Positions 2,048 through 31,996 of a stretch of 64,000 nucleotides of DNA are shown here, piece by piece. The notes beneath the pieces are model-generated. The model saw nothing but the letters and a program-made list of their open reading frames with translations, did no database searches and had not been told where the DNA came from. How positions within the stretch are numbered: position 1 is the stretch's first letter; each line of letters opens with the position of its first letter. Source of the DNA: Candidatus Methanomethylicaceae archaeon (GTDB taxonomy: Archaea > Thermoproteota > Methanomethylicia > Methanomethylicales > Methanomethylicaceae); NCBI GenBank assembly GCA_026414165.1, contig JAOAJN010000003.1, forward strand, positions 68,172 through 132,171, written 5' to 3'. Position numbers and translations under genes: made by a program.

Positions 2048-2542
2048 TTAATTTTCATTTATTTTCCGAATTTCACTAAGGGAGGAGAGAAATTTTCTTA
2101 TTTTAGACACCATGATCCTTGCATCCTCTTCTGTGGAGGGATAAGGCACTTTAATGAAGGGTATGTTGCGCTGTTTAATGAGGTATAGGAGAAATTCGTT
2201 AGTCCTTCCACAGCTGGCACACCCAAAGAGTGCCTCTGGTTCCTCAACAATGATAGCAGCATCCGCCTCCTCAACAAGAGGGCCTATAAGTGCTAGCCTT
2301 CCTCTAACGCCTGAAGGGACCTCTATTGCAGCATATTTGAGACCTCTTCTTGGGAAGTCGGGGGTAATATTCATCGGTGGTGAGTCTATCTCAGGCCTGT
2401 TTACATTCTTTGCAACCTCTTCTCCCAGTCCCAAAGGAGTATGACCTTCTCTTTTAACCAAGTCAAAGAGAATTAGGCTGTTAGGTGGAAATATGAATAT
2501 TTTTGCCAATTTGACTTCACCTTTTTTCTCTTTCTCCCTCAA
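2048..2542 (-). CDS. mmp5: Methanogenesis marker protein 5 (Mmp5)
   Basis: KIFIFPPNSLILFDLVKREGH...EIDSPPMNITPDFPRRGLKYAAIEVPSGVRGRLALIGPLVEEADAAII...FGCASCGRTNE matches my memory of the Mmp5 family. A TTG at 2509 (MAKIFIF..., GGTGA 8 nt upstream) is a plausible alternative start that removes the overlap with mcrC. Confidence 0.75.
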   Translation of the reverse strand: MREKEKKGEVKLAKIFIFPPNSLILFDLVKREGHTPLGLGEEVAKNVNRPEIDSPPMNITPDFPRRGLKYAAIEVPSGVRGRLALIGPLVEEADAAIIVEEPEALFGCASCGRTNEFLLYLIKQRNIPFIKVPYPSTEEDARIMVSKIRKFLSSLSEIRKINEN

Positions 2543-3158
2543 ACTTGCTCAGCCAGAATTTTACCTTTATCACTATTTCGTTGAGTTTGTCACGTGGTGC
2601 GCTGACGCCCCTCACTACGCCTGTCACAATGTCAACAATGGTTCCTAGGCATTCAACCTTCTCTGGAGGGGGACGCACCAAGCGAGTGATGATCCCAACT
2701 TTAGCAAAATCCTCATAGTCCACAGGTGCTTCACAGACTATAATAGTGGGTATGTCAACATAGCGCAGGAAGGTTTTCGCTTTATAGACCACATGACCTC
2801 CTATGCCGCCCAGGTGGAAGAGGGCGAGCTTGTATCTCCTTATCTGGAGTACTTCCTTCTCGTTAATTCCAGCCATTGTTCCACCTGGCGCGCCCCCGTA
2901 TGGTGAGTCTGAAGGCACCCCTGATCCAGACTCAAGAACCAAGACGCTCGTCCTAATACCTTGCTCTCTTAGACCATAAGTTATTTCGCAGATGGGCTTT
3001 GTGATGTGTCTTTTGGACGGGGACATTGCAACTGCGACAACATCAAAGCGCTCCGACTCTGAGATCGTTCCACGCTGGGCTAGTCCACCACCCTCTCCTA
3101 TGCCCTGAGCTTCCCGGCAATCCACGATCTGCGAGCTCCTACCAATAGTTTCTTCCAA
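2517..3158 (-). CDS. mcrC: Methyl-coenzyme M reductase operon protein C (McrC)
   Basis: IGRSSQIVDCREAQGIGEGGGLAQRGT...AVAMSPSKRHITKPICEIT...HLGG...VCEAPVDYEDFAKVG...GTIVDIVTGVVRG is collinear with McrC as I remember it. It has a TTG start with GGAGA upstream. Confidence 0.9.
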   Translation of the reverse strand: MEETIGRSSQIVDCREAQGIGEGGGLAQRGTISESERFDVVAVAMSPSKRHITKPICEITYGLREQGIRTSVLVLESGSGVPSDSPYGGAPGGTMAGINEKEVLQIRRYKLALFHLGGIGGHVVYKAKTFLRYVDIPTIIVCEAPVDYEDFAKVGIITRLVRPPPEKVECLGTIVDIVTGVVRGVSAPRDKLNEIVIKVKFWLSKFEGEREKR

Positions 3159-3177
3159 GTAAATCTCCTCTGAACCT

Positions 3178-3495
3178 TTACACCTTTCCCCTTAGGTAGT
3201 CTTTCACAGTAGGTCTTGGTTTAGTGAAGCGCCCTATCCTAACGTCATAGCCATACGGCATAACCTGTTCACATAGAGGTCGGATCTTATCAATAACAGT
3301 TTCTGGCGAGTGTTCAGACAATAAAAGAATGAACCTTCCAACCATATATCCTCCTCCTGAGTAGTTGTGCTTTTGGAAGAGGACGTCTAAGATCATTCCG
3401 GTGTCCTTTAACAGTGTGGCGAAATCCTCAGCTTTTTTGCTTGGCATTAGCCGCCTGGGCAAGATCTCAATTTCAGGCTTGTCTTTGGCTTCCAA
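3178..3495 (-). CDS. mcrD: Short McrD-like protein (105 aa)
   Basis: The N-terminus PEIEILPRRLMPSKKAEDFATLL and the C-terminus VGRFILLL...IDKIRPLCEQVMPYGYDVRIGRFTKPRPTVKDYL resemble the conserved ends of McrD. The protein is about one third shorter than typical McrD. It lies directly upstream of mcrC. Confidence 0.6.
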   Translation of the reverse strand: MEAKDKPEIEILPRRLMPSKKAEDFATLLKDTGMILDVLFQKHNYSGGGYMVGRFILLLSEHSPETVIDKIRPLCEQVMPYGYDVRIGRFTKPRPTVKDYLRGKV

Positions 3496-3722
3496 AGCAG
3501 AACCCCTAGGCTATAATTAAGATCGAATAAATAAATAGTTGCTTGGGTGAAGGAGGGAAAAAAGTCCGTTTAAAAAGCGACATTTAAAATCAAAACATCA
3601 GATTTCAGTGAAAATAAAAGCGAGAAAGTAAAAAGGATGCAAGAGGCGGATACACAAAAATAGTTTAAGGTTCTATAAAGGTTAATTAAGAGAGCCTCCT
3701 TTGGGAAGGATGGGAAGAAGAA
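3496..3722. promoter_or_regulatory. Divergent promoter region between mcrD-mcrC-mmp5 and mmp3-6-17-7
   Basis: A 227-nt AT-rich spacer with TATA-like elements: CTATAATTAAG (3511-3521), close to the minus-strand TTG start, and TTCTATAAAGG (3671-3681), about 45-55 nt before the plus-strand start. Confidence 0.4.
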
Positions 3723-5243
3723 TTGAAGGTGATGGTTGACGGTACCGAAATGGAAGCACGGGAAGATGAAAATCTGGGAGATTTCTTGGATAGAGTTGGT
3801 ATAATCATCAAAGAGGGCTACATAGTTGCAGTCAAGAGAAAAATAGACGTGGAGAGTATACCTACAAACCTTTATGAAGTTCACACAACACGGGGTAAGA
3901 TGATAATAAGATGGGAGTGTGATGATGAGTTAGAAAAGTGGAGGCGAACCTACAAGAGCTTTGAGGGGTGCGGTGTAAGGTGGGCAACCATTGATGCGGT
4001 TGTTTTTGGACCTACAAAAACGGAATTTGTTCCTTCCAAAGAAGAGGTGGAGTTACGAAGGTATGAAATTACGGTTAGTCTCTCAGGTTCCAGTAATGAG
4101 AGTTCGCACCTTGTATTCAGCAAGAGGACGCATAGTGCTCTCTACTTCCCGCCTAAAGGTTGTAGAGTCTTAGGGCGCGTAGTTTATGGTAGGCACCTGC
4201 TCGATGTCTTTAGAATAGGAGACAAGATAGTTAAGATTTCGCCAGTCTTTGAGAAAAAGTTTGATCCTAGATCCCTATTGCGCGTCGAAAAAGATTACAA
4301 GTTAAAAGAAGGCGACATGATATTTACAAAAATGGAGATATTGCTAGACACCCGTTCTCCTGTTTGTGTAGAACACGTATATAACATGCTCAGCGAAGGT
4401 TTTACGGTCACAAGAAAGACGAGTCGGTTTATTGCACATGATAAAGCCAGACTAATCTCCATAAAAAGCGAGGTTGTGGGAGAAAGGGACAGAGGGGTTA
4501 TTTCTGTAAGAAGTTCCGGAAACAATACTGGTTCAGTGTATATCTATCTTCAGAAGGCGGCAATTTCAAAAGATCATACTATCGCGGGGCGGGTTGTCAA
4601 CGGCATAGAGCTTGCCGATGTTGCCAGAGAAGGAGACTTAATACGAACAGTCCTCACCCCAGAGAGGCTGGATCTTCTCGGGAGGAGCCAAGGAGAAGTA
4701 AACAAGGTTTTGGAGAGGATTGGAATCAAGCATGTCAGGGAAGGTTATATCGATGATGATGGGATCGTAGTAGACCACTCACCAGCCACCACGATTGAGA
4801 TCTATAAGCAGGGGATCGTCAGGTGCACAGGTCTCCCCCACGATCAGATCTTGAAGGTTCGGTTATATGAAAATAGTGCGCCCATATCTGTAAAATACTT
4901 CAGGAGAGTTGCTGGCTTAGACCTAAGACGTGTTGGAAGGCTCGACGTATTCTTTTCAACAAAAGATGTGGTTCTATTCAAAGGTGACGAGAGTTTTGGA
5001 AAATCTTTGATGCCAGAGAATATTCCCAATGAAAAAGTCGGCGCAGGAGAAATAGGAGTTACAAATTCTGTCAAGAAATTCGCCGGAATGGTTGGGATAA
5101 GGTTGACGGAAAGTGATAAGTTTGGTCCGACGGCAGAAAGCTTTGACGGGACCAACATTGTTGGCAGAGTTTTGGAAAATATCGCTTTATTGAAAGGTCT
5201 ACGTGAGGGGAGAAGGGTCTACATTATGGAGGGGAGTCAATGA
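3723..5243 (+). CDS. mmp3: Methanogenesis marker protein 3 (Mmp3, UPF0288 family)
   Basis: A ~500-aa protein whose size, position and general sequence character fit Mmp3/UPF0288. It is the first gene of a tightly coupled mmp operon. The start is uncertain (TTG 3723, GTG 3729 or ATG 3732). Confidence 0.75.
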   Translation: MKVMVDGTEMEAREDENLGDFLDRVGIIIKEGYIVAVKRKIDVESIPTNLYEVHTTRGKMIIRWECDDELEKWRRTYKSFEGCGVRWATIDAVVFGPTKTEFVPSKEEVELRRYEITVSLSGSSNESSHLVFSKRTHSALYFPPKGCRVLGRVVYGRHLLDVFRIGDKIVKISPVFEKKFDPRSLLRVEKDYKLKEGDMIFTKMEILLDTRSPVCVEHVYNMLSEGFTVTRKTSRFIAHDKARLISIKSEVVGERDRGVISVRSSGNNTGSVYIYLQKAAISKDHTIAGRVVNGIELADVAREGDLIRTVLTPERLDLLGRSQGEVNKVLERIGIKHVREGYIDDDGIVVDHSPATTIEIYKQGIVRCTGLPHDQILKVRLYENSAPISVKYFRRVAGLDLRRVGRLDVFFSTKDVVLFKGDESFGKSLMPENIPNEKVGAGEIGVTNSVKKFAGMVGIRLTESDKFGPTAESFDGTNIVGRVLENIALLKGLREGRRVYIMEGSQ

Positions 5244-5659
5244 TAAAGACATTTGTGGTGATGCTCTCGCCAGACTCAAATTTGACGCCTTCCATGCTTA
5301 TGGAAAAGGTAGCGTCGATAGGTGGAGTAGATTACAAAGAGACTTGTTATGGGTTGCTAATAGAGGGTGAAGAGGAAAATTTGGAGAGAGCAATGAAGGC
5401 ATTGAGGGAGATGGATCCAAACAGAATATTCTTCAAGGTGAGGGGTTATAGGATTGGAGATGAGAGGATATGCCGGGCTAAGAGGGGAGGAGGACCAAGA
5501 CCAGGATATTTTATGTTGGGGGCGGAGAGGAAGGTCCTAAAGAATGTATCGAAGGCACTTGAGGCAGGGGGCATATTTGAGGTAAAAGAGAGAGAGCCCA
5601 AGAAGAAGTTGGATGTTTCAAGGTTGAAGAAGATAGTGGAGGAGGAAGGAGACAGCTAA
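5240..5659 (+). CDS. mmp6: Methanogenesis marker protein 6 (Mmp6)
   Basis: 139 aa, with an ATGA overlap onto mmp3. The KETCYGLLIEGEEE...DPNRIFF segment and the size fit Mmp6 as I remember it. Confidence 0.65.
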   Translation: MIKTFVVMLSPDSNLTPSMLMEKVASIGGVDYKETCYGLLIEGEEENLERAMKALREMDPNRIFFKVRGYRIGDERICRAKRGGGPRPGYFMLGAERKVLKNVSKALEAGGIFEVKEREPKKKLDVSRLKKIVEEEGDS

Positions 5660-5660
5660 T

Positions 5661-6212
5661 ATGAAGATAGCAGTAGTCTCTTCGGACATTAGAGGAGGGG
5701 AGATGTACAGACATATTATTGAGAGGAATGTGGAGGATATGGCGCTTGGAAGTAGCGTAACAGGGTTTGCAGTCATGATAAAGCCGGAGATCCCGCTCTT
5801 TGTAATCAAGGTCAGGTATAAGGAGCGTGAGAGCAAGAATAAGTTAGGGGAGCTGGCAAGGATTGAACCGAGATCTGGTAGCACAAGGGTCATCTTGGAG
5901 GATGAAATAGACTTGGGGGACGCGCTCAAAACTTTGTGGAGCACTTACGGAAGAGACAAAGTTGAGCAGTCTGGAAGGACGGAGATAGTGGTGAGGGGTG
6001 TAGAGCCAGAGAGTTTGAGGGAGCTCAGAATAAGGAAGGAGAGGGTCAGCGTGTCGGAGAAGATTAACGAGCTCGTGAATAGGGTCATACCTGAGGGGTT
6101 CAGAATTCGGTATGTGATAAGGGAAGGAGACTTGCTGACGGTCATCGCTGCAGAAGACCCAATCAAAGATGAGTGGAAGAAAATGGCGGCCGATTTGGTG
6201 GTGAACGATTAA
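5661..6212 (+). CDS. mmp17: Methanogenesis marker protein 17 (Mmp17), tentative
   Basis: 183 aa, starting 1 nt after the mmp6 stop and sitting between mmp6 and mmp7. The assignment rests on size and conserved cluster position rather than on a remembered motif. Confidence 0.55.
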   Translation: MKIAVVSSDIRGGEMYRHIIERNVEDMALGSSVTGFAVMIKPEIPLFVIKVRYKERESKNKLGELARIEPRSGSTRVILEDEIDLGDALKTLWSTYGRDKVEQSGRTEIVVRGVEPESLRELRIRKERVSVSEKINELVNRVIPEGFRIRYVIREGDLLTVIAAEDPIKDEWKKMAADLVVND

Positions 6213-7120
6213 TGTTAAAGTACGTCATCTTTGAAGGTGGGATGTATAAGCACGAACTTCTACTGGAGTTTGTAGACGATGTTGGAGGTTTTGTGATTCA
6301 AAAAACCGTGATCGGGCTGGACCTGATAATGAATTTGGCAGTCCCAGAGGAGGAGGTTGAGAGGTTACAAGAACTAGTTCAGGAGGTCAAGGGTAAGCTA
6401 AGAGATGCTCCGCTAATAGGGACAGAAGTTGCAGTTGTGGCACCTACGCTGTCAAGGCATCACCTTCCGCACCCAGCTTGCGATATAGCAGAGAACTTGA
6501 GAAGGCATGGTGCAAAGACCAACATAATGGGACTAGCTAGGGGGGTGGGGCAGAAGATAGTACATACATCAATACAGGAAAGGCAGCTTATAGAGGAACA
6601 CGACTTGGCAGTTTTTACGCTTGGTAACTTTGAGCATTGTTTGAGGAGGTTCAAGCCAAAGTTGTTCAAGGACCTATCCATACCAGTTATAGTAACGGGC
6701 GGACCACTTGAGCTAGAAGTGGAGGGGGCGAACGGTTATGTCGGAGGAATAGGAAGGTACCCGGAGAGGGCGAGGACTATGGATATGATAGAGAGATTGA
6801 GGAAAGTCTCAGAGCTCGCAGGCAAACTGATCGAGGAAAGACGAAGGGAGATGGATTTAGATCCATTAATTATAGAGCCCGCACTGGTGAAGAGTGAGGT
6901 TGAGAGACAAGTACCAGAGGTTTTGGACGCGCTCTCGCCAACCCCTGTGACTTTGAAGGTTGACGGTGTTAGGATAAAGTTGCCATATGATGAGTATAAA
7001 GAAAAAGTTGCCTCCGTGGTTGTTGAAGGAAAAAAGCTTAATGAAGTTTCCCGCATAACAAGATCTCAGATGAGGGATTATATACTTGTTAAGATCCTTT
7101 CTGAGTCTTATTTCTCCTGA
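6212..7120 (+). CDS. mmp7: Methanogenesis marker protein 7 (Mmp7)
   Basis: MLKYVIFEGGMYKHELLLEFVDDVGGFVIQK resembles the Mmp7 N-terminus. The ATG at 6212 overlaps the mmp17 TAA (TAATG). The ORF-track start at 6173 is probably an artefactual extension. Confidence 0.7.
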   Translation: MLKYVIFEGGMYKHELLLEFVDDVGGFVIQKTVIGLDLIMNLAVPEEEVERLQELVQEVKGKLRDAPLIGTEVAVVAPTLSRHHLPHPACDIAENLRRHGAKTNIMGLARGVGQKIVHTSIQERQLIEEHDLAVFTLGNFEHCLRRFKPKLFKDLSIPVIVTGGPLELEVEGANGYVGGIGRYPERARTMDMIERLRKVSELAGKLIEERRREMDLDPLIIEPALVKSEVERQVPEVLDALSPTPVTLKVDGVRIKLPYDEYKEKVASVVVEGKKLNEVSRITRSQMRDYILVKILSESYFS

Positions 7121-7194: not shown

Positions 7195-8877
7195 GTGATA
7201 CTATTGTTGCTTCTGTGTGATCGGATTAGCAAGAGCTTTTCAGGGTTTAAGGTGCTCGACTCTGTCTCTTTCCAAATCAATAGGTGTGAGATCGTGGGAA
7301 TTTTGGGGGAGAGTGGGGCTGGCAAAACAACATTATTGAGAATTCTGAGGGGTGTTGAGGGGTTCGACAGTGGGAGGATAGTCTTCGAGGATCTTGAAGT
7401 CAATGCAGAATCCCCAAAGGAGTCTTTTCTGGAGCTTCAAAGGAGGACGGCGATACAGCTCCAGAGAACCTTTGGTCTGTGGCCAGATTCTGTTGTGGAC
7501 AACGTGGTGAGGGCACTTGTTTACCAAGATCTCGGGGATGAGGTAGTTCCACAGGACGAAGGGGAATATGAAGAGTACAGGGCAAGGGCAATGGAAGTCT
7601 TAAAGGTTGTGGGACTAGATGGTAGGGCAGATCTTTGGTCTGGAGTCCTCAGTGGTGGTGAGAAACAGAGGTTGATTGTGGCAAGGCAAATAGCCAGAAG
7701 ACCGAAACTCCTGCTGCTTGACGAGCCAGGAACCATGACGGATTTCCAGAGTAGAGCAGCATTGATTGATGCTCTGAAGAGGGCGAGGGACGAGTACCAG
7801 ATGAGCGTCCTCTTCGTTTCACATAATCCAGCCATTCATAAATCCTTGGCAGACAGGGTCATACTCCTAGAGAAGGGAAAAGTCTCAATGGAGGGGGGAG
7901 CCAGAAACGTTGTAGAAAGCTTTCTCTCCAGACTCGAAGAGCCCCTACGTAAGACAAAGATCCCTGGAGAGGATGTTCTCAGAACTGAAAAAACAAGCAA
8001 GGTGTACAAACTTGTTCCATATGGCAAGGTCTTCGAGTTAACTGAGACTACACTAAGTTTTAGATCAGGAGAGATTACGGGCATTGTGGGACCCTCTGGT
8101 GCGGGTAAGACAGTTATAATGAGGATGTTGGCAGGTCTAGAGTTGCCGGACTCTGGAGAGGTCAAGATCTTTTACAGGGGGGAATGGGTACCGCTCGGGA
8201 AGTTTGGTAGGAAGAGTCTCAGAGCAAGGCGGAGGATAGGGATACTCCATCAGGAGTTCGATCTCCCCTATTGGTCAAGTGTGCTGGAGCTTTTTGCTGC
8301 GCGTCTCGGAATAAAGGACTATAGATCGCTTGAGGAGGCGGTCCGCAGGGCCGAGAGGAAAGGGATCAGCGATGCAGTTGTTGATGTTTTAGGAAGGCTT
8401 GCTGAATTGCCAGAAGGGGAGATGGAGATAAAACTCAAAGAGGCAGGGCTAGATAAGAGTCTCCTGAAGGAGATCTTCAAAGAAAAAGATCCTGAGATGG
8501 CAAGGGAGCTGGCCGTGAAGATCCTTGGATGGTTTGGTATAAGCGATGACGTCCTCAACAAAAAGACTCACCAACTCTCTGGCGGGGAAAAGATCAGGAT
8601 AGCATTGGCACTTTCCCTAGTATCAAATCCCAAAGTCTTGATATTAGACGAACCCTTTGGAGACCTAGACCCCTTAACCCTCAGGAGAGTTGCAAACCTC
8701 CTAAAGATGATAAAGGTCTGGTTCAAGCCAGCTATAATACTGGTTAGTCATCAGTTGGAATTTGTGGAGGAAGTTGCCGACAGATGCATATTGATCAGGG
8801 AAGGTAAGGTTATAATGGATGGGGAGCCCAAAGATGTTATAAATGGGTTCTTGGGTGAGGGGGAGCATGGAGTTTGA
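7195..8877 (+). CDS. A2-like double ABC ATPase (paralogue of MCR component A2, lacking the zinc-ribbon insert)
   Basis: It has two ABC cassettes: GESGAGKTT...LSGGEKQR...LLLDEP and GPSGAGKTV...LSGGEKIR...LILDEP. It shares the A2-type segment TAIQLQRTFGLWP with atwA at 23131 (compare [13 protein letters not shown]). The start is uncertain (GTG 7195 or TTG 7204/7207). Confidence 0.75.
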   Translation: MILLLLLCDRISKSFSGFKVLDSVSFQINRCEIVGILGESGAGKTTLLRILRGVEGFDSGRIVFEDLEVNAESPKESFLELQRRTAIQLQRTFGLWPDSVVDNVVRALVYQDLGDEVVPQDEGEYEEYRARAMEVLKVVGLDGRADLWSGVLSGGEKQRLIVARQIARRPKLLLLDEPGTMTDFQSRAALIDALKRARDEYQMSVLFVSHNPAIHKSLADRVILLEKGKVSMEGGARNVVESFLSRLEEPLRKTKIPGEDVLRTEKTSKVYKLVPYGKVFELTETTLSFRSGEITGIVGPSGAGKTVIMRMLAGLELPDSGEVKIFYRGEWVPLGKFGRKSLRARRRIGILHQEFDLPYWSSVLELFAARLGIKDYRSLEEAVRRAERKGISDAVVDVLGRLAELPEGEMEIKLKEAGLDKSLLKEIFKEKDPEMARELAVKILGWFGISDDVLNKKTHQLSGGEKIRIALALSLVSNPKVLILDEPFGDLDPLTLRRVANLLKMIKVWFKPAIILVSHQLEFVEEVADRCILIREGKVIMDGEPKDVINGFLGEGEHGV

Positions 8878-10768: not shown

Positions 10769-11309
10769 TGTTATAGAAAATTTGATGAGGCTGAAGGGGA
10801 TTATAAAGGTCGTACCTTTGACTCAGGAGGATCGGGCTGAGATCGAAAGGCTTGAGAGGGAGGCAGAAGGGAAGGTCTTGATGGGTCTATGTAAAGGCAT
10901 GAATTTAGGGGTCAGGGAGGCCCTTAGAAAGAAGACCGTTTACGCATGCATAACAAACGCAAGCCTCAGATGGCCAAAGACATCGCTTGTAAAGATAGTC
11001 TGTGGCGAGGAGACCATTGGCGAGGACAAATATGACGAGAATGAGTTGGAAAGGCTAAAAAGTGAGGGGAACCTCGTTGTGGGAAACATCGTCTTCTATA
11101 AAGATAAGATACGCCTGATGAGGGAGAATATTGATAAGATAAGCTTACTTATGCTCCCCCTAAAAATACCTGAGTTAGAGGGGCTGGGGATGGTTATAGG
11201 AAGCCCCTCTCCCCCTGCAGATTTGTATTTAAAGAAGAAGTTAGGGGCCTCGGAAGATGATCCAAATATTGGGACGGTAATTGTCGGCGTGGGAGGGGAT
11301 CAAGGGTAA
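10755..11309 (+). CDS. Hypothetical protein (184 aa), translationally coupled to the RACo-like gene
   Basis: A 14-nt overlap with the preceding gene and normal composition. I recognise no family. Confidence 0.5.
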   Translation: MSEDNVIENLMRLKGIIKVVPLTQEDRAEIERLEREAEGKVLMGLCKGMNLGVREALRKKTVYACITNASLRWPKTSLVKIVCGEETIGEDKYDENELERLKSEGNLVVGNIVFYKDKIRLMRENIDKISLLMLPLKIPELEGLGMVIGSPSPPADLYLKKKLGASEDDPNIGTVIVGVGGDQG

Positions 11310-21062: not shown

Positions 21063-21174
21063 TCTCGCCAGACAGTCGAATAAATTTTTAGGCGAGGGTT
21101 CAGAGGACATTCTGGATATTTATAGATTGGAAAACTTTGCTCAGGGACTAATATACTGATGACGGTGTGATTCC

Positions 21175-22383: not shown

Positions 22384-22399
22384 AAAGTTAAAGTTGTAA

Positions 22400-23083
22400 A
22401 TGCAAAAAGTTGTGAAGAAAGTTATGAAAGTTGTTGTCTTTTTAGGACCGAGTCTGCCTTTAGAAGAGGCAAAAAAGATTTTGGACTATGCCGACTACAG
22501 ACCGCCTGCTGGGAGGGGGGATGTGGCAGGAGTTGCCGATGAGGGGTTCGGAATAATAGGCCTTGTGGATGGAGTTTTCTACCAGAAAACAGCAGTTTCA
22601 CATCGTGAGATCCTTTATGCCCTTAAAAAAGGGGTTAAAGTTGTCGGCGGATCTAGCATAGGGGCTCTAAGGGCATGCGAGTTGGATGTCTACGGCATGA
22701 TCGGGGTCGGGAAGATTTATAGATGGTATAGAGAGGGCATAATTAGTGCCGATGACGAGGTCGCAGTTGCATTCCATCCGAATACATACCAACCACTATC
22801 CGAGCCTTTGGTCAATATAAGAGCCACTTTGGAGGTTCTGATCTCAAGAGGCATGATCAGCGAGGATGATAGAAGAATCATAATTGAGAGTGCTAAGGAG
22901 ATTCCGTTTCACCTTAGAAATTACAGCAGGATAATTCAGAAGGCCATAGACAAGCTAGGCAGAGACAGAGCAAGAGGACTCCTAGAATTATTAAGGATGG
23001 AGAGGGTCGATCAAAAACGGATAGATGCAATAGAAGTTTTGAACAAGGTTAAGGAATTGGCAGCAATTGATACAAGTGTATGA
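22400..23083 (+). CDS. tfuA: TfuA-like partner of YcaO
   Basis: VVVFLGPSL...YRPPAGRGDV...GLVDGVF...SHREILYAL..GV.VVGGSSIGALRA is the TfuA signature. An alternative start lies at 22424. Confidence 0.85.
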   Translation: MQKVVKKVMKVVVFLGPSLPLEEAKKILDYADYRPPAGRGDVAGVADEGFGIIGLVDGVFYQKTAVSHREILYALKKGVKVVGGSSIGALRACELDVYGMIGVGKIYRWYREGIISADDEVAVAFHPNTYQPLSEPLVNIRATLEVLISRGMISEDDRRIIIESAKEIPFHLRNYSRIIQKAIDKLGRDRARGLLELLRMERVDQKRIDAIEVLNKVKELAAIDTSV

Positions 23084-23130
23084 CTTAAATATCACATCTC
23101 ATTAATAATCGTGTTCTTTGGTGCACGGCA

Positions 23131-24753
23131 ATGAAGGAGGCATTAATAGTCGTAGACGGTGTTTCCAAAAAGTTCAATGGAAATTACGTTCTCAAGGACG
23201 TATCGCTCGTAATACGCGAGGGGGAGAGAGTAGGAATTCTTGGGAAGAGTGGTTCGGGCAAGAGTGTGCTTCTCTCAATGCTGAAAGGGATGAGTGAATA
23301 TGCCCCAACATCCGGTAAAGTGATATACCGAGTTGCGTCATGTAAGGAATGCGGTTTCGTTGAAGGACCCAGTATGGTGGGGAAGGTTTGCCCAAGATGT
23401 TGTGGAAGGATGGAACTTTTAGAAGTAGATTTCTGGGAGGATAGGGAGTCAGCCAAAGATATTAAGAATAGGATAGCGATAATGTTTCAAAGAACCTTTG
23501 CTCTTTACGGTAGCCTTACGGTTTACGAGAATTTTGTTGAGGCTTTGGAGAAAGTGGAACTTGATGATGTTAATATAGGGCGTAAGGCGCTGGAGCTCGC
23601 CAAGAGAATGGGTCTTGAACACAGGCTTCTCCATGCGGCAAGAGATCTCAGCGGCGGGGAAAAACAGAGGGTCGTACTAGGAAGACAGTTGGCAATAAGA
23701 CCAATACTTTTGTTGGCAGATGAGCCAACAGGGACGCTCGACCCGCTGAGTGCAAGGATGGTCTACAGGATACTGAATGAGGAGATCAAAGGCAAGAACA
23801 TAACCATGCTTGTTACCTCACATCTGCCCGAAGCAGTAGAGGTCTTGAGCGAAAGAGCGATACTTTTAGAGAAAGGGAGTGTTAGGGCGACAGGTAATCC
23901 AAGAGATATAGTCAAAGAGTTCTTATCGGAAGCGGAGCCTACGCCCAAAGAGGCACCAGTGGAGACGGGGGGCATAATACTCAGGGTGGAGGGGCTAAAG
24001 AAGCATTACTTCTCCCTAGACAAAGGTGTTGTCAGAGCCTTAGACGACGTCTCCTTTGAGGTCAGGGAGGGGCAGATATTTGGGATCGTAGGAATGAGTG
24101 GTGCAGGGAAGACGACGCTTTCGAGGATCATTGCAGGTCTTACGGAGCCGACCTCGGGCAGGGTCTGGCTGAGGATAGGCGATGAGTGGGTGGACATGCT
24201 GCAGCCAGGACCCATGGGGCGCGGCAGGGCGACGCCATACATCGGGTTACTTCATCAAGAGTACTCGCTGTATCCACATAGAACGATACAAGAGAATTTG
24301 ACGGATGCCATTGGACTTGAGTTGCCAGACGAGTTTGCCAAATTCAAGGCAGTCATGGTCTTGAGGGCAGCCGGCTTCCAAGAGAGTCTGACGGAAATTA
24401 TTTTGAACAAATATCCTGATGAGTTGAGCGAGGGTGAAAGACACAGGGTCGCGCTAGCGCAGGTCCTAATAAGAGAGCCAGTCCTAGTAATATTGGACGA
24501 GCCGACTGGTACGATGGACCCTATAACACAAAAAGATGTTTCCAAGTCAATAAAGAATGCCAGAAATGAGCTCAGGCAGACTTTTCTAATAGTGTCACAT
24601 GATATGGGATTTGTCCTGAATACTTGTGATGAAGCACTGCTTCTCAGAGACGGGAAGATAGTGATGAAGGGACCCGTCTGCGAAGTGGTGAGATCTTTCT
24701 CGTCGGAGGAGATCGCGGAATTATCTCAATCCAAAGACGGACTCCCTTGTTAG
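23131..24753 (+). CDS. atwA: MCR system component A2 (AtwA), double ABC ATPase with a zinc-ribbon insert
   Basis: Two ABC cassettes ([18 protein letters not shown]). A CKECG...CPRCCG insert (23341-23403) follows the first Walker A, as I remember for canonical A2. Confidence 0.85.
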
Positions 24754-25650
24754 ATCCATGAAAATTTCTTTTTTCTGACCCATGGATACGATTATTCTTT
24801 TATCAGCTGTGAAGCGACCTACAGACTCCACAGAGAAGCCCGAATTTCTCAAGACTTCAAAGATTTTGGGGTTAGGAGAGCCGAAGATAAATCCCATTGC
24901 AGGATATGAAGTCAACCATTCAGAAAGCGAAGAGCCTTCTGGTGTAGGGATCTTCTCAAGAGAGATCTCCGCTCCAACGCTACTAGCTTCACAGAGCATC
25001 GCCAAACTTCCCAATATTCCGGGAGCACTTATGTCCCTAGAACAATACACTTCGCCAGACTCCAAGACAGAGATTATGGCAGAGATCATGTCTTGAACTT
25101 GTTTCGATGTCTTTTTCAGGGTGCTATCAAAACATTTAACCCAACCCTTCAGACCAAAAGAACCTGAAAGATCAATTGCCATTACAATTTCGTCGCCAGG
25201 GCGGGCCTCTATTCCCCTCACGACTTTTTTTGCCAAGCCGACTACCGCGGCGTCTATTGCCGCGTATGAAGAATCAGGGTGAGTATGACCTTTGAGCAGT
25301 TTGACGTTGTACTTTTCCAGTCCAGCTTTTATGCCTTCGGCCATCTTTTTCCTAATTTCCCTTGGTCCCGAGATAACATTCACATATCCAAGTGGTCTCG
25401 CGCCCTTTGCCACCACATCATTGACATTTACAAGAACAGAGTAATAACCAGCAAACCAAGGATCCGACTTGACCAGATCCTCTGCTATACCGTCCGTAGA
25501 GACCACAATATTAAGCCCCTGCACTTCCAATATTCCAGCATCGTCATAGTCGACCTCGCCTAGTATATTTACGATCTCCCCAATCTGGGCCTTTCTGGAT
25601 AGCCCTTTATAGGATCTTGTCTTGTTTACGATCTCTTTAAGGTCTTCCAA
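24721..25650 (-). CDS. mmp2: Methanogenesis marker protein 2 (Mmp2; AIR-synthase/PurM-related)
   Basis: PurM-like features: DDAGIL...VVSTDG...NDVVAKGARPL. The size is ~310 aa. It has a TTG start with GAGGGG upstream. Its 3' end overlaps the atwA 3' end by 33 nt (convergent). Confidence 0.7.
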   Translation of the reverse strand: MEDLKEIVNKTRSYKGLSRKAQIGEIVNILGEVDYDDAGILEVQGLNIVVSTDGIAEDLVKSDPWFAGYYSVLVNVNDVVAKGARPLGYVNVISGPREIRKKMAEGIKAGLEKYNVKLLKGHTHPDSSYAAIDAAVVGLAKKVVRGIEARPGDEIVMAIDLSGSFGLKGWVKCFDSTLKKTSKQVQDMISAIISVLESGEVYCSRDISAPGILGSLAMLCEASSVGAEISLEKIPTPEGSSLSEWLTSYPAMGFIFGSPNPKIFEVLRNSGFSVESVGRFTADKRIIVSMGQKKEIFMDLTRESVFGLR

Positions 25651-25705: not shown

Positions 25706-26044
25706 GTGGGAGTGGACAAAAGTATGCTCAGGGAAGGAGCATCGGTCGTATACAAAAGGACTGGCACTATCGGTAAAGTTATCGAATTGAGAGAGATGGA
25801 TGGCAAGATCTGGGCCAAGTTGGATTCCACAGGACTATTTTACGATGAGGATCTTCTAGAAATGGCTGAAGAGAGTGTTGTTGAAAAGCCTAGGCAAGGG
25901 ATAGAAGAAGTGGAAGCAGAATTAAAAGTAGAAGAAGTAGAAGGAAAAAAGGCAGAAAAGGGAAGGAAAGAAAAATCTGAAACACCCGAAATCAAAGATG
26001 AAGGCAAAATAGACACCAGCGGGAATGTGTGCGGTGCTGGATGA
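25706..26044 (+). CDS. Small protein: N-terminal beta-rich module plus an acidic/lysine-rich tail ending CGAG (possibly DUF2098-like)
   Basis: ASVVYKRTGTIGKVIELREMDGKIWAKLDSTGLFYDEDLLE is followed by an E/K-rich tail. The probable start is ATG 25724. The family recall is uncertain. Confidence 0.45.
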   Translation: MGVDKSMLREGASVVYKRTGTIGKVIELREMDGKIWAKLDSTGLFYDEDLLEMAEESVVEKPRQGIEEVEAELKVEEVEGKKAEKGRKEKSETPEIKDEGKIDTSGNVCGAG

Positions 26045-26057: not shown

Positions 26058-26834
26058 TTGAGGGCGGCAATAGTACTTGACAAGTCAGGCACTATACTGA
26101 GACCTTGTAGAGTAATCTTTGACCTTAAAAAAAGCGAACTTCTTTTCCATGTTAATACTTTGAAATTCGTTATTGAAGTTGGCGGATATCTCGTGAATGT
26201 GAAGGGTTCCCCGAACGCAATAAAGCGAGGGGTTATAAAAATTGGAAAGGTAGTTTGTGCTTCCTCACAGGTTCCGCCTAGAGTCAATACTGAAATCTTA
26301 AGACAAAACCGTGTTTTGGAGGCACTAAACAAGGTAATGGTTGAGGCGGAAAGACATTGTGGCTCAGAGATCGGAATATGTGTAGCCCTAATAGTGGATA
26401 AAGATGGGCATCCAACACATGCCGTGGGTTTAGGAGGAAAGCTTTACGACGATGTGAAGGAGACCGTTGAGATGATCAAGGATTCAGACGATGATGTATT
26501 CATAGCTACGGGAAATTGTCGAGAGGCAACTTTGAAGTGTGCAAAGGTTTTGGGTATAGATAAGAGGTTTGTCCTCACCGATGCTTCTCCCAGAGAAAAG
26601 AGTGATTTTGTGAAGGCGCTCAGAAGGTTTTACGGACTTGTTGTAATGGTGGGAAATGATGTTAATGACATCCTGGCTATGAGAGAAGCAGACCTCTCTG
26701 TACTTGTAAAAAGAGATCCTTCTGATGTTATGGAAAGGCTGATGTCTGATGTAGATTATACTGTCAGTTCCCTTAGAGAGATACCCAAAATAATATCGGA
26801 GATTAAAGGACAAGTTGCCCAGTCTTCGGTTTGA
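26058..26834 (+). CDS. Soluble P-type-ATPase-like HAD phosphatase
   Basis: Motif I is VLDKSGT (the DKTGT-like phosphorylation motif) and the C-terminal motif is MVGNDVNDILAM (GDGxND-like). There are no transmembrane segments. Confidence 0.65.
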   Translation: MRAAIVLDKSGTILRPCRVIFDLKKSELLFHVNTLKFVIEVGGYLVNVKGSPNAIKRGVIKIGKVVCASSQVPPRVNTEILRQNRVLEALNKVMVEAERHCGSEIGICVALIVDKDGHPTHAVGLGGKLYDDVKETVEMIKDSDDDVFIATGNCREATLKCAKVLGIDKRFVLTDASPREKSDFVKALRRFYGLVVMVGNDVNDILAMREADLSVLVKRDPSDVMERLMSDVDYTVSSLREIPKIISEIKGQVAQSSV

Positions 26835-26876
26835 AAATTACTTGTAAATTCGTTCGATTTGTTTGTGACGAGTCCC

Positions 26877-27482
26877 TCACTTGAGGGTTTTAAGGATTAG
26901 TATGTCGTAGTAGTGTTTTTGGTATTCAGGGTGAGCGTGAGGGAGTGCTTGTGCAAGCTCCTCCTCCAGATCTTTTAAAATATGCAACTCGTCAACCTTC
27001 AAGAATCCAATAAGTGCACCCTCAGAAGCTTCTTTGCAAAATACACTGTGGGGCACGAATCCTGCAGTGGTGACAAATGCGACCTCTTCTTTGAGAGTAC
27101 TCAGCTCCTCTAAGTGCCTTGAGTCAAACCCATAGCGAACTTCTTCGAAAAAGGAACGGATGCAGCAAGTAGGATACTTGAGAAGGCGCCCGACTTCCCA
27201 GTCAGAAAAGTTCTTGCTAAATATTCCAAGTTGTGTGGAAGAGTAAGGATCAAGTGCAGGTCTGATGGGCGGATTGTAGCGTTCTACGATCCTCAGTTGA
27301 AGTTCGAGCCTCGATAGTACGTCATGTAAATACTCGCTTGAAAAAAATCTTGCAATATGCTCCGCTAGTGATGGAAACTCATTATATCTCTCTCTGGCAA
27401 GTTCGGACGTTAAATTTGATAGGTCGGCGATTATTTCAATAATCCTCTTAAGTGATGAATAGCCATTCTTTTTTGATGACAT
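26877..27482 (-). CDS. Cys-motif protein (DUF483-like, uncertain) directly downstream of mcrA
   Basis: 201 aa with LLKYPTCCIRSFF and ...HSVFCKE. It starts 21 nt after the mcrA stop on the same strand. Confidence 0.5.
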   Translation of the reverse strand: MSSKKNGYSSLKRIIEIIADLSNLTSELARERYNEFPSLAEHIARFFSSEYLHDVLSRLELQLRIVERYNPPIRPALDPYSSTQLGIFSKNFSDWEVGRLLKYPTCCIRSFFEEVRYGFDSRHLEELSTLKEEVAFVTTAGFVPHSVFCKEASEGALIGFLKVDELHILKDLEEELAQALPHAHPEYQKHYYDILILKTLK

Positions 27483-27503
27483 GGTGGGAAAAAAAGAAGG
27501 GGT
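27483..27503 (-). terminator. Oligo-T tract between mcrA and the downstream gene (possible partial terminator)
   Basis: The minus-strand spacer reads ACCCCTTCTTTTTTTCCCACC. T7 runs are typical archaeal termination signals. There is no room for a separate promoter. Confidence 0.3.
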
Positions 27504-29174
27504 TTAGTGGCTTGGGATAATCAGATCTCGTTCGCCAGCAGGCATGAACTCCCTGAGAGCGCCTTTTCCGAAGCATAGCCTCGGGTGTGTGAAGTCGAAT
27601 TTCAGGTCCTTGTCTGCGAAGGCCACCTTTATCAATGGGTTTGTTGTCCACGCGTCGCCTCTTCCGCCGTGGGCCGCAGAGATTATACCACAATATGCTG
27701 ATTGGTGTCCAACATTGAGTGCGTAGTTGGGGTAGTTTACGCCCCTCAGGTTGAAGGGCAGACCCTCGTCGCTTCTCCATGAGAAACTGTTCGCCGAGCC
27801 GCATTGGTCTTGGCAGTCGTATCCATAGAAGCCAAGTCGTCCCATCTCTTCCTTGTGGAGCAGTTGGCTCAAGTACCAACCATTGATGCCTGCTGTGGAA
27901 TGACCAGTAACCAGTGACACTGAGACACCAGCACCAGCAGCTACCACGGCAGCCCTCTGGGATCCTCCGAAGTGGGTCTCCATTAAGGCAGGATACCGTT
28001 CATACTGCTCAAGACCGTATAAGGTTACCTCCGTGGCAACATCGTTTATCACATCCCAGCTTGGCTTGACTTTTGCGAAGCCGCCGTACTTCTTCCTAAC
28101 GTACTCAGCACCGTAGTAGCAGAAGTCGTCAAGGATGTTGTCAGTGTAAGTGCAGGTCGCATACTGAGTGAAGCCAACACCACCAGACATGTAGCTTCCG
28201 AACCAGAACTGGTCGTAGAGCACAGCCGCCATGGAAATAGCTTCGAGAGCGACCCAGACGGGGTCCTCTGGCTTGACCCTTGAGGCTTGGCAGATATCGG
28301 CCATGTAGCCTAGCGGAATTCCTCCGGGCTCGTTGGGACCCCTTGCTCGCCTCCAAGGCATCAGAGTACCCATCTCTATAACCTCTGCGTGCTTTGCCGC
28401 AAAGGCGAACTCTCCCACCGCAGCCTCTCCAGCCATGAGTTTGTATGCGTTTATCATAGACATTGAGATCTGCATGGCCGCCCATCTTGACATTGTGCCT
28501 CCGTCGCATGTCATCGCTACGAGTGTTGGCATGCGGCATACCTGGTAAATGCGTTTTCCAATAGCAGCCTTCAGCTGTGCCGCCTGCTCAGCAGGGAACT
28601 CCTTGTTTATGTCGATGAGAAATCTGTCGTCGATCTCGTCTGCAAGCTCGTCGTCACCCGTGAATACCTTAACGTAGCTGTCCGAGACTAGCCCAGGGTG
28701 GGTCTCGACCATGTGCTCTTGAACTACAGCAGCACCTGGCAGTGCGTGGTTGAGTACTTCCAGATAGTGGTTCACGGTTTCAGGGGTGACTTCCTTCCCG
28801 AGTCGCTTCTGCAGGACCGTGTGTGCAGCATCTAGTCCAACAATCACAGTCCGCCTTATGTCATGCCACATCTGCTGCATCGCGGCGTTGTTTATGAAGT
28901 GAAGGTCGTCGCCCTCGCAGTATATGTCTGTTCCCGATAGGCGGTAAGGCATTAAGACTCTTTGTCCTAGCGGGATGCCGCCGAGGTGGAGGTCGGGGTT
29001 GTAAAATGGAACTTTCCTCTCCTTGGCTACCTTTTGAGCAGCCTCTACGAACTCCCTCTTCCTCTTGGACTGCTTCCATCCGTCATAGATGTAGAATTTT
29101 GTTTGTTTCTCTTCAGGAGACTCCTTGAACTTTCTCCTGAGCGCTTCTAAGAACATCTTCTTCTCTTCGCTCAT
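27504..29174 (-). CDS. mcrA: Methyl-coenzyme M reductase alpha subunit
   Basis: 556 aa. Hallmark segments are [51 protein letters not shown] and NYPNYA. GGAGGA lies 5 nt before the ATG. Confidence 0.97.
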
Positions 29175-29185
29175 TACAAATCCTC

Positions 29186-29962
29186 CTAAATCTCTTTCAC
29201 CCTGTTAGGATCAAAACCTGCCTCTGTTCTGAGCATGTGAATTCTCTGGACAAACTGGATAAGTTCCTTGTCATTTCTGAAGGCTTCTCCGTCAACTCTG
29301 AACTGGCTGGTTATTTTTCTCAACTCCTCTTCGGGGGCGGGTTTTCCTACATATATTGGCCTGTCGAGTGGAACTCCAACCTGATCCTTCACATAAACGA
29401 CCTCGCCCTTGTTCTTGTCATATTGGAACCTGCGCAGAGCATCGAACATTAGACCGTTCTCGTCGAGTCTCAGTGCATGACCATGAACTGTGGCACCTCT
29501 GATACCGACCCTCGCCGGATCGAATATTTCGGTCTCCACAAGTTCTTTAGCTACCTTTTCAAGGTCGCGCTCTCGGGCCTCAAGTGGGACGCGGCCTGAT
29601 AGGACGCCAATGTCCACTCCGCGGTATCGCATGTGACCCATCCAAGCCCTCATGTATGGAGTCAGCGGAGCAAAGTACACAGAGTCCGTGAATTGTATGT
29701 AGCGAATCCTGTCACCAGCCTTGGCTCCGGGCGTGGGTTCCACAAGTTCCCTTATGGGGCATGCGGGCTCACCAAGCTCCTCTAAGGGAGGATGGACGCT
29801 CTTGTAAGCCTCCCCTGGAACCCTGTGCCCCATTAATCTAACCAAGTCATCGTCGCTTATTGTCCTTAGCTTTCTAAGTTTGTAATTAGGATCAATGTAT
29901 TTTCGCCGGTTGGCGGATACATTTGACCCTCCAGGGTAATATTGGGGTTTATATTCAACCAT
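29186..29962 (-). CDS. mcrG: Methyl-coenzyme M reductase gamma subunit
   Basis: [15 protein letters not shown]...[16 protein letters not shown]...[18 protein letters not shown]...[12 protein letters not shown]. The ATG starts 1 nt after the mcrB TAA. Confidence 0.95.
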
Positions 29963-29963
29963 T

Positions 29964-31298
29964 TTATACTCCTCCTTTTATTGAGACCGCGGCCTCATTA
30001 ACGTACCGCAAAGATTCCCTAAGCTCAGGCACTTCGCTCAGTACCTCGCCGACTACGCCGCTGATTCTTTCTGGTGTGTAGATGGTAGTTCCAGCATCAA
30101 GTGCCACGGCAGCAGCCACACATGGGATTGTGAAGCCTTTGCTGTGTCGGGTCACTATGTGGTTTCCGTGAAAGACTGCGGGGTTTCCTCCGCCATAGAT
30201 CGAGTGACTGAAGAAGGACATCTCCACACCTGTACCTGTTACTCTGCCAAAGTCCACTCCTGGGAGACCAGTCTCCCTCTCCAGGAGGTCATTGAAGTAT
30301 ATGAAGACTGATGGGGCGTGTTGCATAGATCTCGCAGAACCACAGGTTATCATTGTCCCTGCCAAGAGTCCTGCAGCAGCATAGGCATTCCACTTGTTGA
30401 GATCGCTTGTCGTGTAGAGCGTATATCCAGCAGGGGTCTTCTTTAACGGCTTGATCACACCGTCTGAGAGTGCTCTCTTTACAGTCGATATGACTACGTC
30501 TCCCAGTGTTCCAGTTTTTGCATTCTCTTTCACAAGGTCATAGACTATGTTGTCGGCATTCAAGCCCTGATAGGCTAGACCCAAGAGGTGTAACCTCTCA
30601 AAGCTACCAATGGCGTCGCCCATCTCAAACATAGCAGTCTGTTCCAAGATCGCTGAAAGGGCAGCAGCATTCATAGCATTCTTCTTTGCGATCAGAGCTA
30701 TGTGTGCGCACGGTATGTTTCTGAGGGCGTAGCCCATGCCTTCATTCTGCTGCGGTACTGCCAAGAGTGAGGATACATTTCCACCCAGCATCTCCATAGT
30801 TTGGGGATATCTCCCCCAGACGGCGGCATGTATGAGATCTGCATCCCATATGTTGACGTTAAAGTTCTCGATTATTGTGCAGCAGAGGGCAGCAGCTACA
30901 GCTGTTGCTCCGGTAGTGTACTCAACTCCAGCGTTGAGTCTTTTTGCTGGGACTTTCACAAGGAGGTGCTTTCCGCCCTTTAGAACCTTAACCTCGGTGT
31001 CGTCATCTGGATCTACTTGCAAACACTTCTTCAAAGAGTCTGCCACACTGCCTGCGTTCTTTACAAGATCGAGTTTCAGAGATCTGCCCCTGATGATACA
31101 CCATTTTCCGCCGACTTCACCAGTATCAAGCGCCTTCTCGACACCTTCCAAGTTAACAGCAACGCATTGTTTCACATAGGAGATGATTTTTTGTATGGCA
31201 GTGTTTTTAAGTGGACTCAGAGCCTCAACCGGAACGTTTGTGTCAAAGAGCTTCCCGCGGTCGTCGTACAAGTTCACTTTGTCCGGATATTTTGGCAT
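29964..31298 (-). CDS. mcrB: Methyl-coenzyme M reductase beta subunit
   Basis: [16 protein letters not shown]...[37 protein letters not shown]. The ATG at 31298 is preceded by GAGAGGAG. The ORF-track start at 31364 is 5'-UTR read-through. Confidence 0.95.
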
Positions 31299-31452
31299 AA
31301 AACTCCTCTCTGTAGATTTCTTAGGTGAGAATAGATAACTGGAGGTTAAAAATCTTGCCCTCAATCCTGAAATTAAAATAAATTGTATTAAAGTGATTTT
31401 AAGAGTTTATATTTTTATTTTTTATTAATTATTAATAGAAAACATTTATAGA
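31299..31452 (-). promoter_or_regulatory. mcrBGA promoter and 5'-UTR region
   Basis: A 154-nt, very AT-rich spacer. The minus-strand reading begins TCTATAAATG, followed by ATTAAT-A-ATTAAT (31424-31436) and AAAATAAAAATATAAAC. It ends with a strong GAGGAG ribosome-binding site. Confidence 0.5.
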
Positions 31453-31995: not shown

Positions 31996-31996
31996 T

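Follow-up and report, generated by a model that had tools for sequence, protein, structure and literature searches.

How does an archaeon of the Thermoproteota arrange the genes that encode, build and activate methyl-coenzyme M reductase (MCR), and what does the arrangement say about the enzyme and its host? The question is raised by a 64,000-nucleotide stretch of DNA (the window) from a Candidatus Methanomethylicaceae archaeon (GenBank assembly GCA_026414165.1, contig JAOAJN010000003.1, positions 68,172 to 132,171 of the forward strand; coordinates below count from the first letter of the window). An earlier note, made from the letters of the sequence, had described there a dense MCR "island" in a non-classical layout and had proposed a methane- or alkane-metabolizing host. 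We listed the open reading frames (ORFs), scored each gene named in that note against the NCBIfam curated equivalog cut-offs and added Pfam searches. Thirteen of the 15 marker assignments (mmp5, mcrC, mmp3, mmp6, mmp17, mmp7, mmp15, ycaO, tfuA, atwA, mcrA, mcrG and mcrB) scored above the cut-offs, whereas mcrD and mmp2 fell below them. With all three MCR subunits and eleven accessory genes confirmed, the host is an MCR-encoding archaeon, as had been proposed. We hold with high confidence that this neighborhood contains MCR together with most of the machinery that builds and activates it, in a methyl-reducing-type methanogen of the class Methanomethylicia (Thermoproteota).

Structural genes and the type of MCR

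The three structural genes are as follows.

27504-29174, minus strand: mcrA (TIGR03256, 1005 bits against a cut-off of 768; exact match to MCX8181990)
29186-29962, minus strand: mcrG (TIGR03259, 386.5 bits against a cut-off of 172; exact match to MCX8181991)
29964-31298, minus strand: mcrB (TIGR03257, 650 bits against a cut-off of 516; 444-residue product an exact match to MCX8181992)

They run in the order mcrB-mcrG-mcrA (31298 to 27504), and the features that had been reported for them, spacers of 1 and 11 nucleotides with GGAGG at both, can be read directly in the sequence. The first GGAGG lies within the 3' end of mcrB and the second within TAGGAGGA in the mcrG-mcrA spacer. Such spacers leave no room for mcrC or mcrD among the three genes and, given the tight spacing, translation of mcrB, mcrG and mcrA is likely to be coupled. 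The mcrB start is the ATG at 31298, which is preceded by GAGAGGAG and is also the start of the 444-residue GenBank McrB.

McrA is 68-70% identical to the biochemically characterized Methanothermobacter MCR (68.5% to M. marburgensis MCR I), and its residues Q152, Y338, H262, R276, Q406, G451, D456 and C458 correspond to M. marburgensis Q147, Y333, H257, R271, Q400, G445, D450 and C452. The F430 axial glutamine, the active-site Tyr/Phe residues and the modified residues are thereby all retained, as are F335, F449 and N487. The equivalog scores, the conserved residues and the identity of about 70% to characterized enzymes indicate a canonical methane-type MCR rather than an alkyl-coenzyme M reductase (ACR). 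An ACR, in a host that oxidizes ethane or longer alkanes, would accord with the description of separate BGA and C/D layouts as typical of non-Mcr family members and of a deep 'Xcr' clade confined to Methanomethylicaceae (PMC9982363). However, McrA, McrB and McrG clear the canonical MCR equivalog models by wide margins, the identity to the Methanothermobacter enzyme is high, every canonical active-site and modification residue is kept and the closest cultured relatives are methanogens. By these comparisons an ACR appears effectively refuted, its probability being next to nil, and the alkane-metabolizing alternative of the earlier note was dropped in favor of a canonical MCR.

Genes of MCR activation and maturation

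For each of the six proteins known from the solved ATP-dependent MCR activation complex (McrC, Mmp7, Mmp17, Mmp3, component A2 and a DUF2098 protein), a homolog is encoded within 24 kb. These genes and the other maturation genes among them are listed here.

2048-2542, minus strand: mmp5 (TIGR03271, 209 bits against a cut-off of 140)
2517-3158, minus strand: mcrC, core iron-sulfur subunit of the MCR activation complex (TIGR03264, 287 against 213.5; exact match to MCX8181964)
3178-3495, minus strand: short mcrD, 105 residues (NCBIfam 44 against 100; Pfam MCR_D 41 against 25; exact match to MCX8181965, named McrD)
3496-3731, no strand: AT-rich intergenic stretch separating the divergent genes mcrD and mmp3, read from the sequence
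3723-5243, plus strand: mmp3 (TIGR03268, 494 against 234; the GenBank product (P0159) starts at the ATG at 3732 and has 503 residues)
5240-5659, plus strand: mmp6 (TIGR03272, 136 against 126; exact match to MCX8181967)
5661-6212, plus strand: mmp17 (TIGR03291, 116.5 against 67; PDB 8S7V chain G, E = 3.6e-15; exact match to MCX8181968)
6212-7120, plus strand: mmp7, 302 residues (TIGR03274, 399 against 349; PDB 8S7V chain H, E = 2e-81; exact match to MCX8181969)
19806-21062, plus strand: mmp15, BcrAD/BadFG-type ATPase family (TIGR03286, 650 against 456)
21175-22383, plus strand: ycaO, McrA glycine thioamidation (TIGR03266, 465 against 365; exact match to MCX8181983)
22400-23083, plus strand: tfuA (NF033432, 272 against 235), starting 16 nucleotides past ycaO
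23131-24753, plus strand: atwA, genuine component A2 (TIGR03269, 762 against 517; PDB 8S7V chain K, E = 7e-176; exact match to MCX8181985)
24721-25650, minus strand: mmp2-like gene, AIR-synthase family (TIGR03267 the best match, 250 against 365, aligned over full length)
25706-26044, plus strand: DUF2098 protein (Pfam DUF2098, 66 against 25; PDB 8S7X and 8S7V chain L, E = 2.4e-4)

The short mcrD-like gene, mcrC and mmp5 are divergent from mmp3-mmp6-mmp17-mmp7, at the coordinates previously given, and the junctions of the latter unit were also found as described: mmp3 and mmp6 overlap by ATGA, mmp6 and mmp17 are separated by a single nucleotide and mmp17 and mmp7 overlap by TAATG, which sets the mmp7 start at 6212. 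The promoters of both divergent units presumably lie within the AT-rich region at 3496-3731. The start of mmp5 is ambiguous: either an in-frame TTG at 2542 or the TTG at 2509, which has GGTGA 8 nucleotides upstream. The second group named in the earlier note, mmp15, ycaO, tfuA and atwA (19806 to 24753) with a convergent mmp2, is likewise present, and atwA and the mmp2-like gene overlap by 33 nucleotides.

McrC matches the M. maripaludis McrC of PDB 8S7V/9H1L with E = 4e-73, and its cluster ligands C14, H51, C57 and H122 are equivalent to C12, H49, C55 and H118 of the published list (PMC12176620). The Mmp7 ligands H84, C90 and C143 lie at identical positions, which brings the conserved cluster ligands to all seven of those listed. 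The product of atwA has both of component A2's nucleotide-binding domains (with Walker A motifs at 38 and 321 and Walker B motifs at 193 and 452) and the CxxCx12CxxC zinc motif (C71-x2-C74-x12-C87-x2-C90). The DUF2098 gene is one of four that the earlier note did not list, together with an A2 homolog that lacks the zinc motif, a RACo-type activase gene and a DUF483 gene. In M. maripaludis the DUF2098 protein, which a loop of McrC holds, copurifies with McrC, Mmp7, Mmp17, Mmp3 and A2 (PMC12176620). For thioamidation, YcaO and TfuA both score above cut-off, their genes are adjacent and the target glycine, G451, is kept in McrA.

The N-terminal PEIEILPRRL segment of the short McrD and its C-terminal part align to the solved McrD structures 8W33 and 8GF5; about 45-48 residues, the wedge loop included, are absent from the middle. 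The middle insertion of McrD has been lost in many lineages (PMC10288656), and the short protein is therefore a known kind of variation. Orthologs of 108-120 residues occupy the same position in relatives. Alignment to the solved structures and conserved gene order thus support assignment of this gene as mcrD. A longer McrD homolog was seen directly before mcrG in a Nitrososphaeria metagenome-assembled genome (MAG; L034).

The mmp2-like gene, named 'AIR synthase related protein' in GenBank, has the DUF2098 gene and mcrA as neighbors both in Methanomethylicia and in the Methylarchaceae loci L026 and L027, and this conserved order supports its assignment. In these last two loci (Methylarchaceae and a relative; McrA 68% identical) the DUF2098 and mmp2-like genes directly follow mcrA, an arrangement that suggests an old DUF2098-Mmp2-mcrA linkage.

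Downstream of mmp7 are three further genes.

7195-8877, plus strand: component A2 homolog without the zinc motif (TIGR03269, 333 against 517; start uncertain)
8843-10768, plus strand: RACo/AcsV-type corrinoid reductive activase (Pfam Fer2, RACo_linker, Raco_middle and RACo_C_ter; NF040756, 537 bits, below cut-off)
10755-11309, plus strand: ORF of 184 residues

Aligned from end to end, the A2 homolog is about 30% identical to the atwA product. Its Walker A and Walker B motifs number two each, and a deletion of 28 residues coincides exactly with the site of the atwA CxxCx12CxxC motif. By its description, it seems to fit the 'A2 homolog lacking ZBM' class, which is found in many archaea (bioRxiv 10.64898/2026.03.18.712670); the fit is to the published description and not to MA_3967 itself. 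The position of this gene after mmp7, together with RACo, is kept in Methanosuratincola and in the MAG BinS31. The RACo gene overlaps the A2 homolog gene by 35 nucleotides and the 184-residue ORF overlaps the RACo gene by 14. The ORF gave no family match in Pfam or NCBIfam; orthologs about 50% identical hold the same position in Methanosuratincola and the gene is absent from BinS31. These genes follow mmp7 with overlapping ends, and 7195-11309 may form one unit for reactivation of both MCR and corrinoid.

By homology to the characterized proteins, the route to active enzyme may be pictured as follows. McrD would help to load F430 into apo-MCR and YcaO and TfuA would convert McrA G451 to thioglycine. 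Low-potential electrons would reach F430 by way of three [8Fe-9S-C]-type clusters in McrC, Mmp7 and Mmp17, and A2 would hydrolyze ATP and open McrA, to give active Ni(I)-MCR. Mmp5, Mmp6, Mmp15 and the Mmp2-like protein probably belong to the same system. Gene order suggests at least four transcription units: (i) mcrD-mcrC-mmp5, (ii) divergent from it, mmp3-mmp6-mmp17-mmp7 with the A2 homolog gene, RACo and the ORF, (iii) mmp15-ycaO-tfuA-atwA, and (iv) mcrBGA, perhaps with read-through into the DUF483 gene. The second unit would place genes for activation of MCR, a nickel enzyme, beside a reductive activase for corrinoid, a cobalt cofactor. An organism forming methane from methyl compounds and H2 would require nickel and cobalt reactivation alike, and the arrangement would suit methyl reduction as in Methanosuratincola petrocarbonis.

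Placement of the host

A scan for McrA in one genome per GTDB species gave 37 loci. The best matches, at 98-99% identity, are MAGs labeled Methanomethylicales, Methanomethylicaceae or Thermoproteota, and the window McrA is 99% identical to those of three of them (JZ-2_bin_200, MAG-3 and co25_125). Identity is 90-91% (90.5%) to the complete genomes of Candidatus Methanosuratincola petrocarbonis LWZ-6 and verstraetei LCB70, 88.8% to Ca. Methanomethylicus, 83% to Nezhaarchaeota and 74% to Korarchaeia. In a neighbor-joining tree the window McrA is sister to the three MAGs, followed by SKYB85, WYZ-LMO11 and BinS31 and then by Methanomethylicus and Methanosuratincola. A tentative placement of McrA in the canonical clade comes from this tree, made without ACR, ethyl-coenzyme M reductase or ANME-1 sequences (ANME, anaerobic methanotrophic archaea), and from the 68-70% identity. 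The nearest species representative (L028, JZ-2_bin_200) is collinear over 21 kb at 85% DNA identity, and the window therefore represents a species of its own in a group already known.

Both McrA and the housekeeping genes around it group with the class Methanomethylicia (Verstraetearchaeota; proposed Methanosuratincolia). No rRNA or ribosomal-protein block is present in the window. McrA, McrB, McrG, McrC, McrD, Mmp6, Mmp7, Mmp17, YcaO, A2, the DUF483 protein and the Mmp2-like protein are exact matches to GenBank entries (within MCX8181964-MCX8181992) of a 145,488-bp contig, which are labeled 'MAG: Candidatus Methanomethyliaceae archaeon' and, apart from the AIR synthase label of the Mmp2-like protein, bear the same gene names. 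The guess of a TACK/Thermoproteota methanogen in the earlier note was thus correct; McrA nests in Methanomethylicia and not within a class I or II euryarchaeal order.

The novelty that the note implied did not hold up. As cited in PMC12244365, the class was described from genomes by Vanwonterghem et al. in 2016, and its isolate, Methanosuratincola petrocarbonis LWZ-6, forms methane with H2 and either methanol or monomethylamine as substrates (PMC12244365). Host, genes and layout are already known, since the proteins are deposited and annotated, the class is described and has an isolated representative, and its members share the layout.

Could the enzyme run in reverse, in an anaerobic methane oxidizer? 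ANME-1 archaea have been reported to have mcrBGA lacking C and D in the operon (PMC9081873), and sequence alone is silent on the direction of catalysis. However, McrA is not ANME-like and groups with Methanomethylicia, the isolate of which produces methane; mcrC and mcrD are present, although at another locus; and the corrinoid reductive activase fits methyl-group reduction. We regard a methane oxidizer as very improbable and favor a methyl-reducing-type methanogen.

Several points weigh against that assignment or parts of it. Operon boundaries were drawn from spacing alone, and the organism is known here from its genes. No methyltransferase genes (mtaB and the like) were found in the window, and the substrate is taken from relatives. 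The DUF483 gene starts 21 nucleotides past the mcrA stop on the same strand, and the T-run between the two, CCCCTTCTTTTTTTCCCACC, could be a terminator. Both mcrD (44 against 100) and mmp2 (250 against 365) score under their NCBIfam cut-offs, and the McrA tree is a neighbor-joining tree that lacks ACR and ANME outgroups. Finally, whether catalysis runs toward methane formation or oxidation cannot be read from a sequence.

A conserved chromosomal neighborhood

Is the cluster an island in the usual sense? A tblastn search with the window proteins found the block from 17.4 to 39.7 kb, from a ThiN-type regulator to pyruvate-oxidoreductase genes, in the same order in at least 17 loci, among them both complete Methanosuratincola genomes and Methanomethylicus. 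The order of the block is a GTPase gene; mmp15-ycaO-tfuA-atwA; the convergent mmp2-like gene; the DUF2098 gene; a haloacid dehalogenase (HAD) gene; DUF483-mcrA-mcrG-mcrB; a helix-turn-helix (HTH) gene; and a sulfonate-family ATP-binding cassette (ABC) transporter. Chance clustering was rejected because this order is retained in at least 17 loci although the proteins have diverged to 45-90% identity.

Loci for the other half (1.5-14 kb) were fetched from relatives by use of Mmp3 homologs. This half, an MJ0093-like gene and mmp5-mcrC-mcrD divergent from mmp3-mmp6-mmp17-mmp7-A2 homolog-RACo, is the same in Methanosuratincola and in BinS31. Distances between Mmp3 and McrA were obtained from two large MAG contigs that contain both loci. 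In the Methanosuratincola sp. contig JAULTC010000002 the positions are about 11.9 kb for Mmp3 and about 37-38.6 kb for McrA, a separation of about 25 kb compared with 24 kb in the window. The loci fetched from JAJHRG010000001 overlap each other, and there the separation is about 17-18 kb.

A horizontally acquired or mobile "methanogenesis island" has in its favor that MCR and its accessory genes have moved between archaeal lineages (PMC9635834; A2 phylogeny) and that the cluster is unusually dense. Nevertheless, GC content across 2-32 kb is 0.44-0.51, within the range of most of the remaining window except for two low-GC stretches outside the cluster. Scans of the whole window for tRNAs and Rfam families found nothing, and family searches of the window proteins gave no integrase. 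Housekeeping genes (TIM, NadE/NAD synthase, ThiD, TrpB-like and GTPase) lie in among the MCR genes, and this interleaving is conserved across genera. Hence the integrase or tRNA borders, deviant composition and patchy presence in relatives by which a mobile island is recognized are not seen. We consider acquisition as a mobile element extremely improbable. Because the composition matches, integrase and tRNA genes were not found and the interleaved housekeeping genes are conserved, "island" is a misnomer: the region is a conserved chromosomal neighborhood.

Three observations concern the rest of the window. At 52400-56800 the GC content is 0.36-0.38 compared with about 0.46 elsewhere, and the ORFs lack NCBIfam matches; this segment, which encodes a CxxCxxCC-domain protein (52467-53015) and two adjacent 191-residue ORFs (55571-56146 and 56146-56721) that look like tandem paralogs from their N-terminal sequences, may be variable or foreign. 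The first 2000 nucleotides are also low in GC (0.364) and contain a 36-bp repeat of 2.1 copies (472-545) and a gene for a MazE-like/PhoU-domain protein (535-1548). A short plus-strand ORF (36025-36309), which adjoins a gamma-carbonic-anhydrase-like gene, resembles the archaeal DUF2124 profile in its C-terminal half only (positions 63-140 of 141) and may have a mis-set start or be truncated.

Genes linked to the MCR genes

Four additional features border the MCR genes.

1553-1873, plus strand: small conserved MJ0093-like protein, 106 residues, adjoining mmp5-mcrC-mcrD
26058-26834, plus strand: HAD-superfamily hydrolase (Pfam Hydrolase, 41.7), kept between the DUF483 and DUF2098 genes across the class
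26877-27482, minus strand: DUF483 protein (Pfam DUF483, 112 bits; exact GenBank match)
31453-34548, minus strand: HTH regulator, then a sulfonate/taurine-family ABC transporter (ATPase, permease and binding protein), directly upstream of mcrB

In each of the 27 Methanomethylicia-type loci that extend far enough to show it, the DUF483 gene comes next after mcrA, on the mcrA strand; in Nezhaarchaeota the gene is found immediately upstream of mmp5-mmp15. Only 15 clusters among 1.84 billion representatives make up this tiny family, and its named members are from Methanomethylicia, Nezhaarchaeota and, distantly, Methanopyri. Residues C106, C107, C149, H182 and H184 are invariant. An AlphaFold (AF2) model is confident (pLDDT 90.3), but neither phmmer against the PDB sequences nor Foldseek of the model against the PDB gave a meaningful match (best Foldseek E = 1.6), and a literature search for DUF483 together with MCR returned none. 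Assignment of the DUF483 protein as the S-methylcysteine methyltransferase McmA was rejected, because full-length McmA homologs exceed 300 residues and depend on S-adenosylmethionine (PMC7058361) and the DUF483 protein has no methyltransferase match.

The window copy of the 106-residue protein has no Pfam or NCBIfam match. Its orthologs, labeled PF27275:MJ0093, occupy the same position in Methanosuratincola and BinS31 with tblastn identities of 46-61%, and a homolog is also found beside mcrD in Nezhaarchaeota (L023 and L033).

The HTH regulator and transporter genes match Pfam HTH_26 and HTH_3 and, in each case below the equivalog cut-off, the SaoA/TauB-like, SaoP/TauC-like and SsuA families, and their position upstream of mcrB is kept across the class and in Bathyarchaeota L024. 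Coenzyme M is itself a sulfonate, and for this reason we raise as a speculation that the transporter beside mcrB might take up coenzyme M.

Both Methanomethylicia and Nezhaarchaeia keep the DUF483 gene, the A2 homolog gene, the MJ0093-like gene and the RACo-linked ORF tied to the MCR genes. That one or more of these four might serve, unrecognized, in the assembly or activation of MCR in Thermoproteota methanogens specifically and, separately, that class-wide mcrBGA may require revision of the "ancestral BDCGA operon" inference are proposals that we put forward as unlikely ones.

Comparison with known systems

As a discovery the neighborhood carries limited weight and is mainly a clean example: 30 kb of Thermoproteota DNA gathers a canonical MCR, six activation-complex subunits, the thioglycine enzymes and a minimal McrD, a convenient template for heterologous MCR expression. 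Of specialist interest are the strict linkage of the DUF483 gene, the A2 homolog gene and the MJ0093-like gene to the MCR genes, and the evolution of the operon.

The MCR neighborhoods of Candidatus Methanosuratincola (LWZ-6, CP130488; LCB70, CP186953) and Ca. Methanomethylicus have the gene order of the window from the MJ0093-like gene through RACo and again from the ThiN regulator through mmp15-ycaO-tfuA-atwA to mcrAGB, the HTH gene and the ABC transporter, and in Methanosuratincola the Mmp3-McrA distance of about 25 kb is like that of the window. Nevertheless, the window differs from them as a species or genus-level lineage, with identities of 90.5% for McrA, about 50% for Mmp3 and about 77% for mcrBGA DNA. 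Its closest relatives, at 85% DNA identity, are uncultured MAGs (JZ-2_bin_200 and MAG-3).

With the M. maripaludis activation complex (8S7V/8S7X/9H1L; PMC12176620) the window shares the six non-MCR subunits, the seven ligands and the A2 zinc motif. It differs in that the window genes are spread over three loci and the DUF2098 protein is weakly similar (E = 2.4e-4), and in that the window system is known here from genes alone. The "MCR activation operon" of M. acetivorans, in which mmp5, mmp6, mmp17, mmp7, mmp3, mmp15 and A2 are cotranscribed and the mcr genes are mcrBDCGA (bioRxiv 10.64898/2026.03.18.712670), is made up of seven families that are all present in the window. In contrast to that single operon, the window genes lie in three loci on both strands: mmp5 is with mcrC-mcrD, mmp3-6-17-7 are with the A2 homolog gene and RACo, and mmp15 and A2 are with ycaO-tfuA, 12.7 kb downstream of mmp7.

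The five families of the textbook euryarchaeal mcrBDCGA operon are likewise present, with the relative order of B, G and A kept. The earlier note was right that the split layout departs from that operon: a divergent unit some 24 kb away contains mcrD and mcrC (3495 to 2517), in the order D-C followed by mmp5, and McrD is about 45 residues shorter. Methanogens have been said always to have an operon that contains both mcrC and mcrD (PMC9081873), and a second paper takes BDCGA as the ancestral arrangement, conserved in canonical Mcr, and regards discrete BGA and CD as typical of non-Mcr clades (PMC9982363). The presence of mcrBGA without C or D throughout a class that includes proven methanogens contradicts both generalizations. 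The correction to operon layout is small, and it follows directly from public genomes.

The Nezhaarchaeota (Methanonezhaarchaeia; L023 and L033) also have mcrBGA without C or D inside and mcrC divergent from mmp3-mmp6-mmp17, like the window, with a short mcrD, the A2 homolog, DUF483 and MJ0093-like genes, mmp5, mmp15, mmp7 and atwA close by. Their cluster, of about 16 kb, is denser than that of the window: mmp3-6-17 immediately precede mcrB, and no housekeeping genes intervene.

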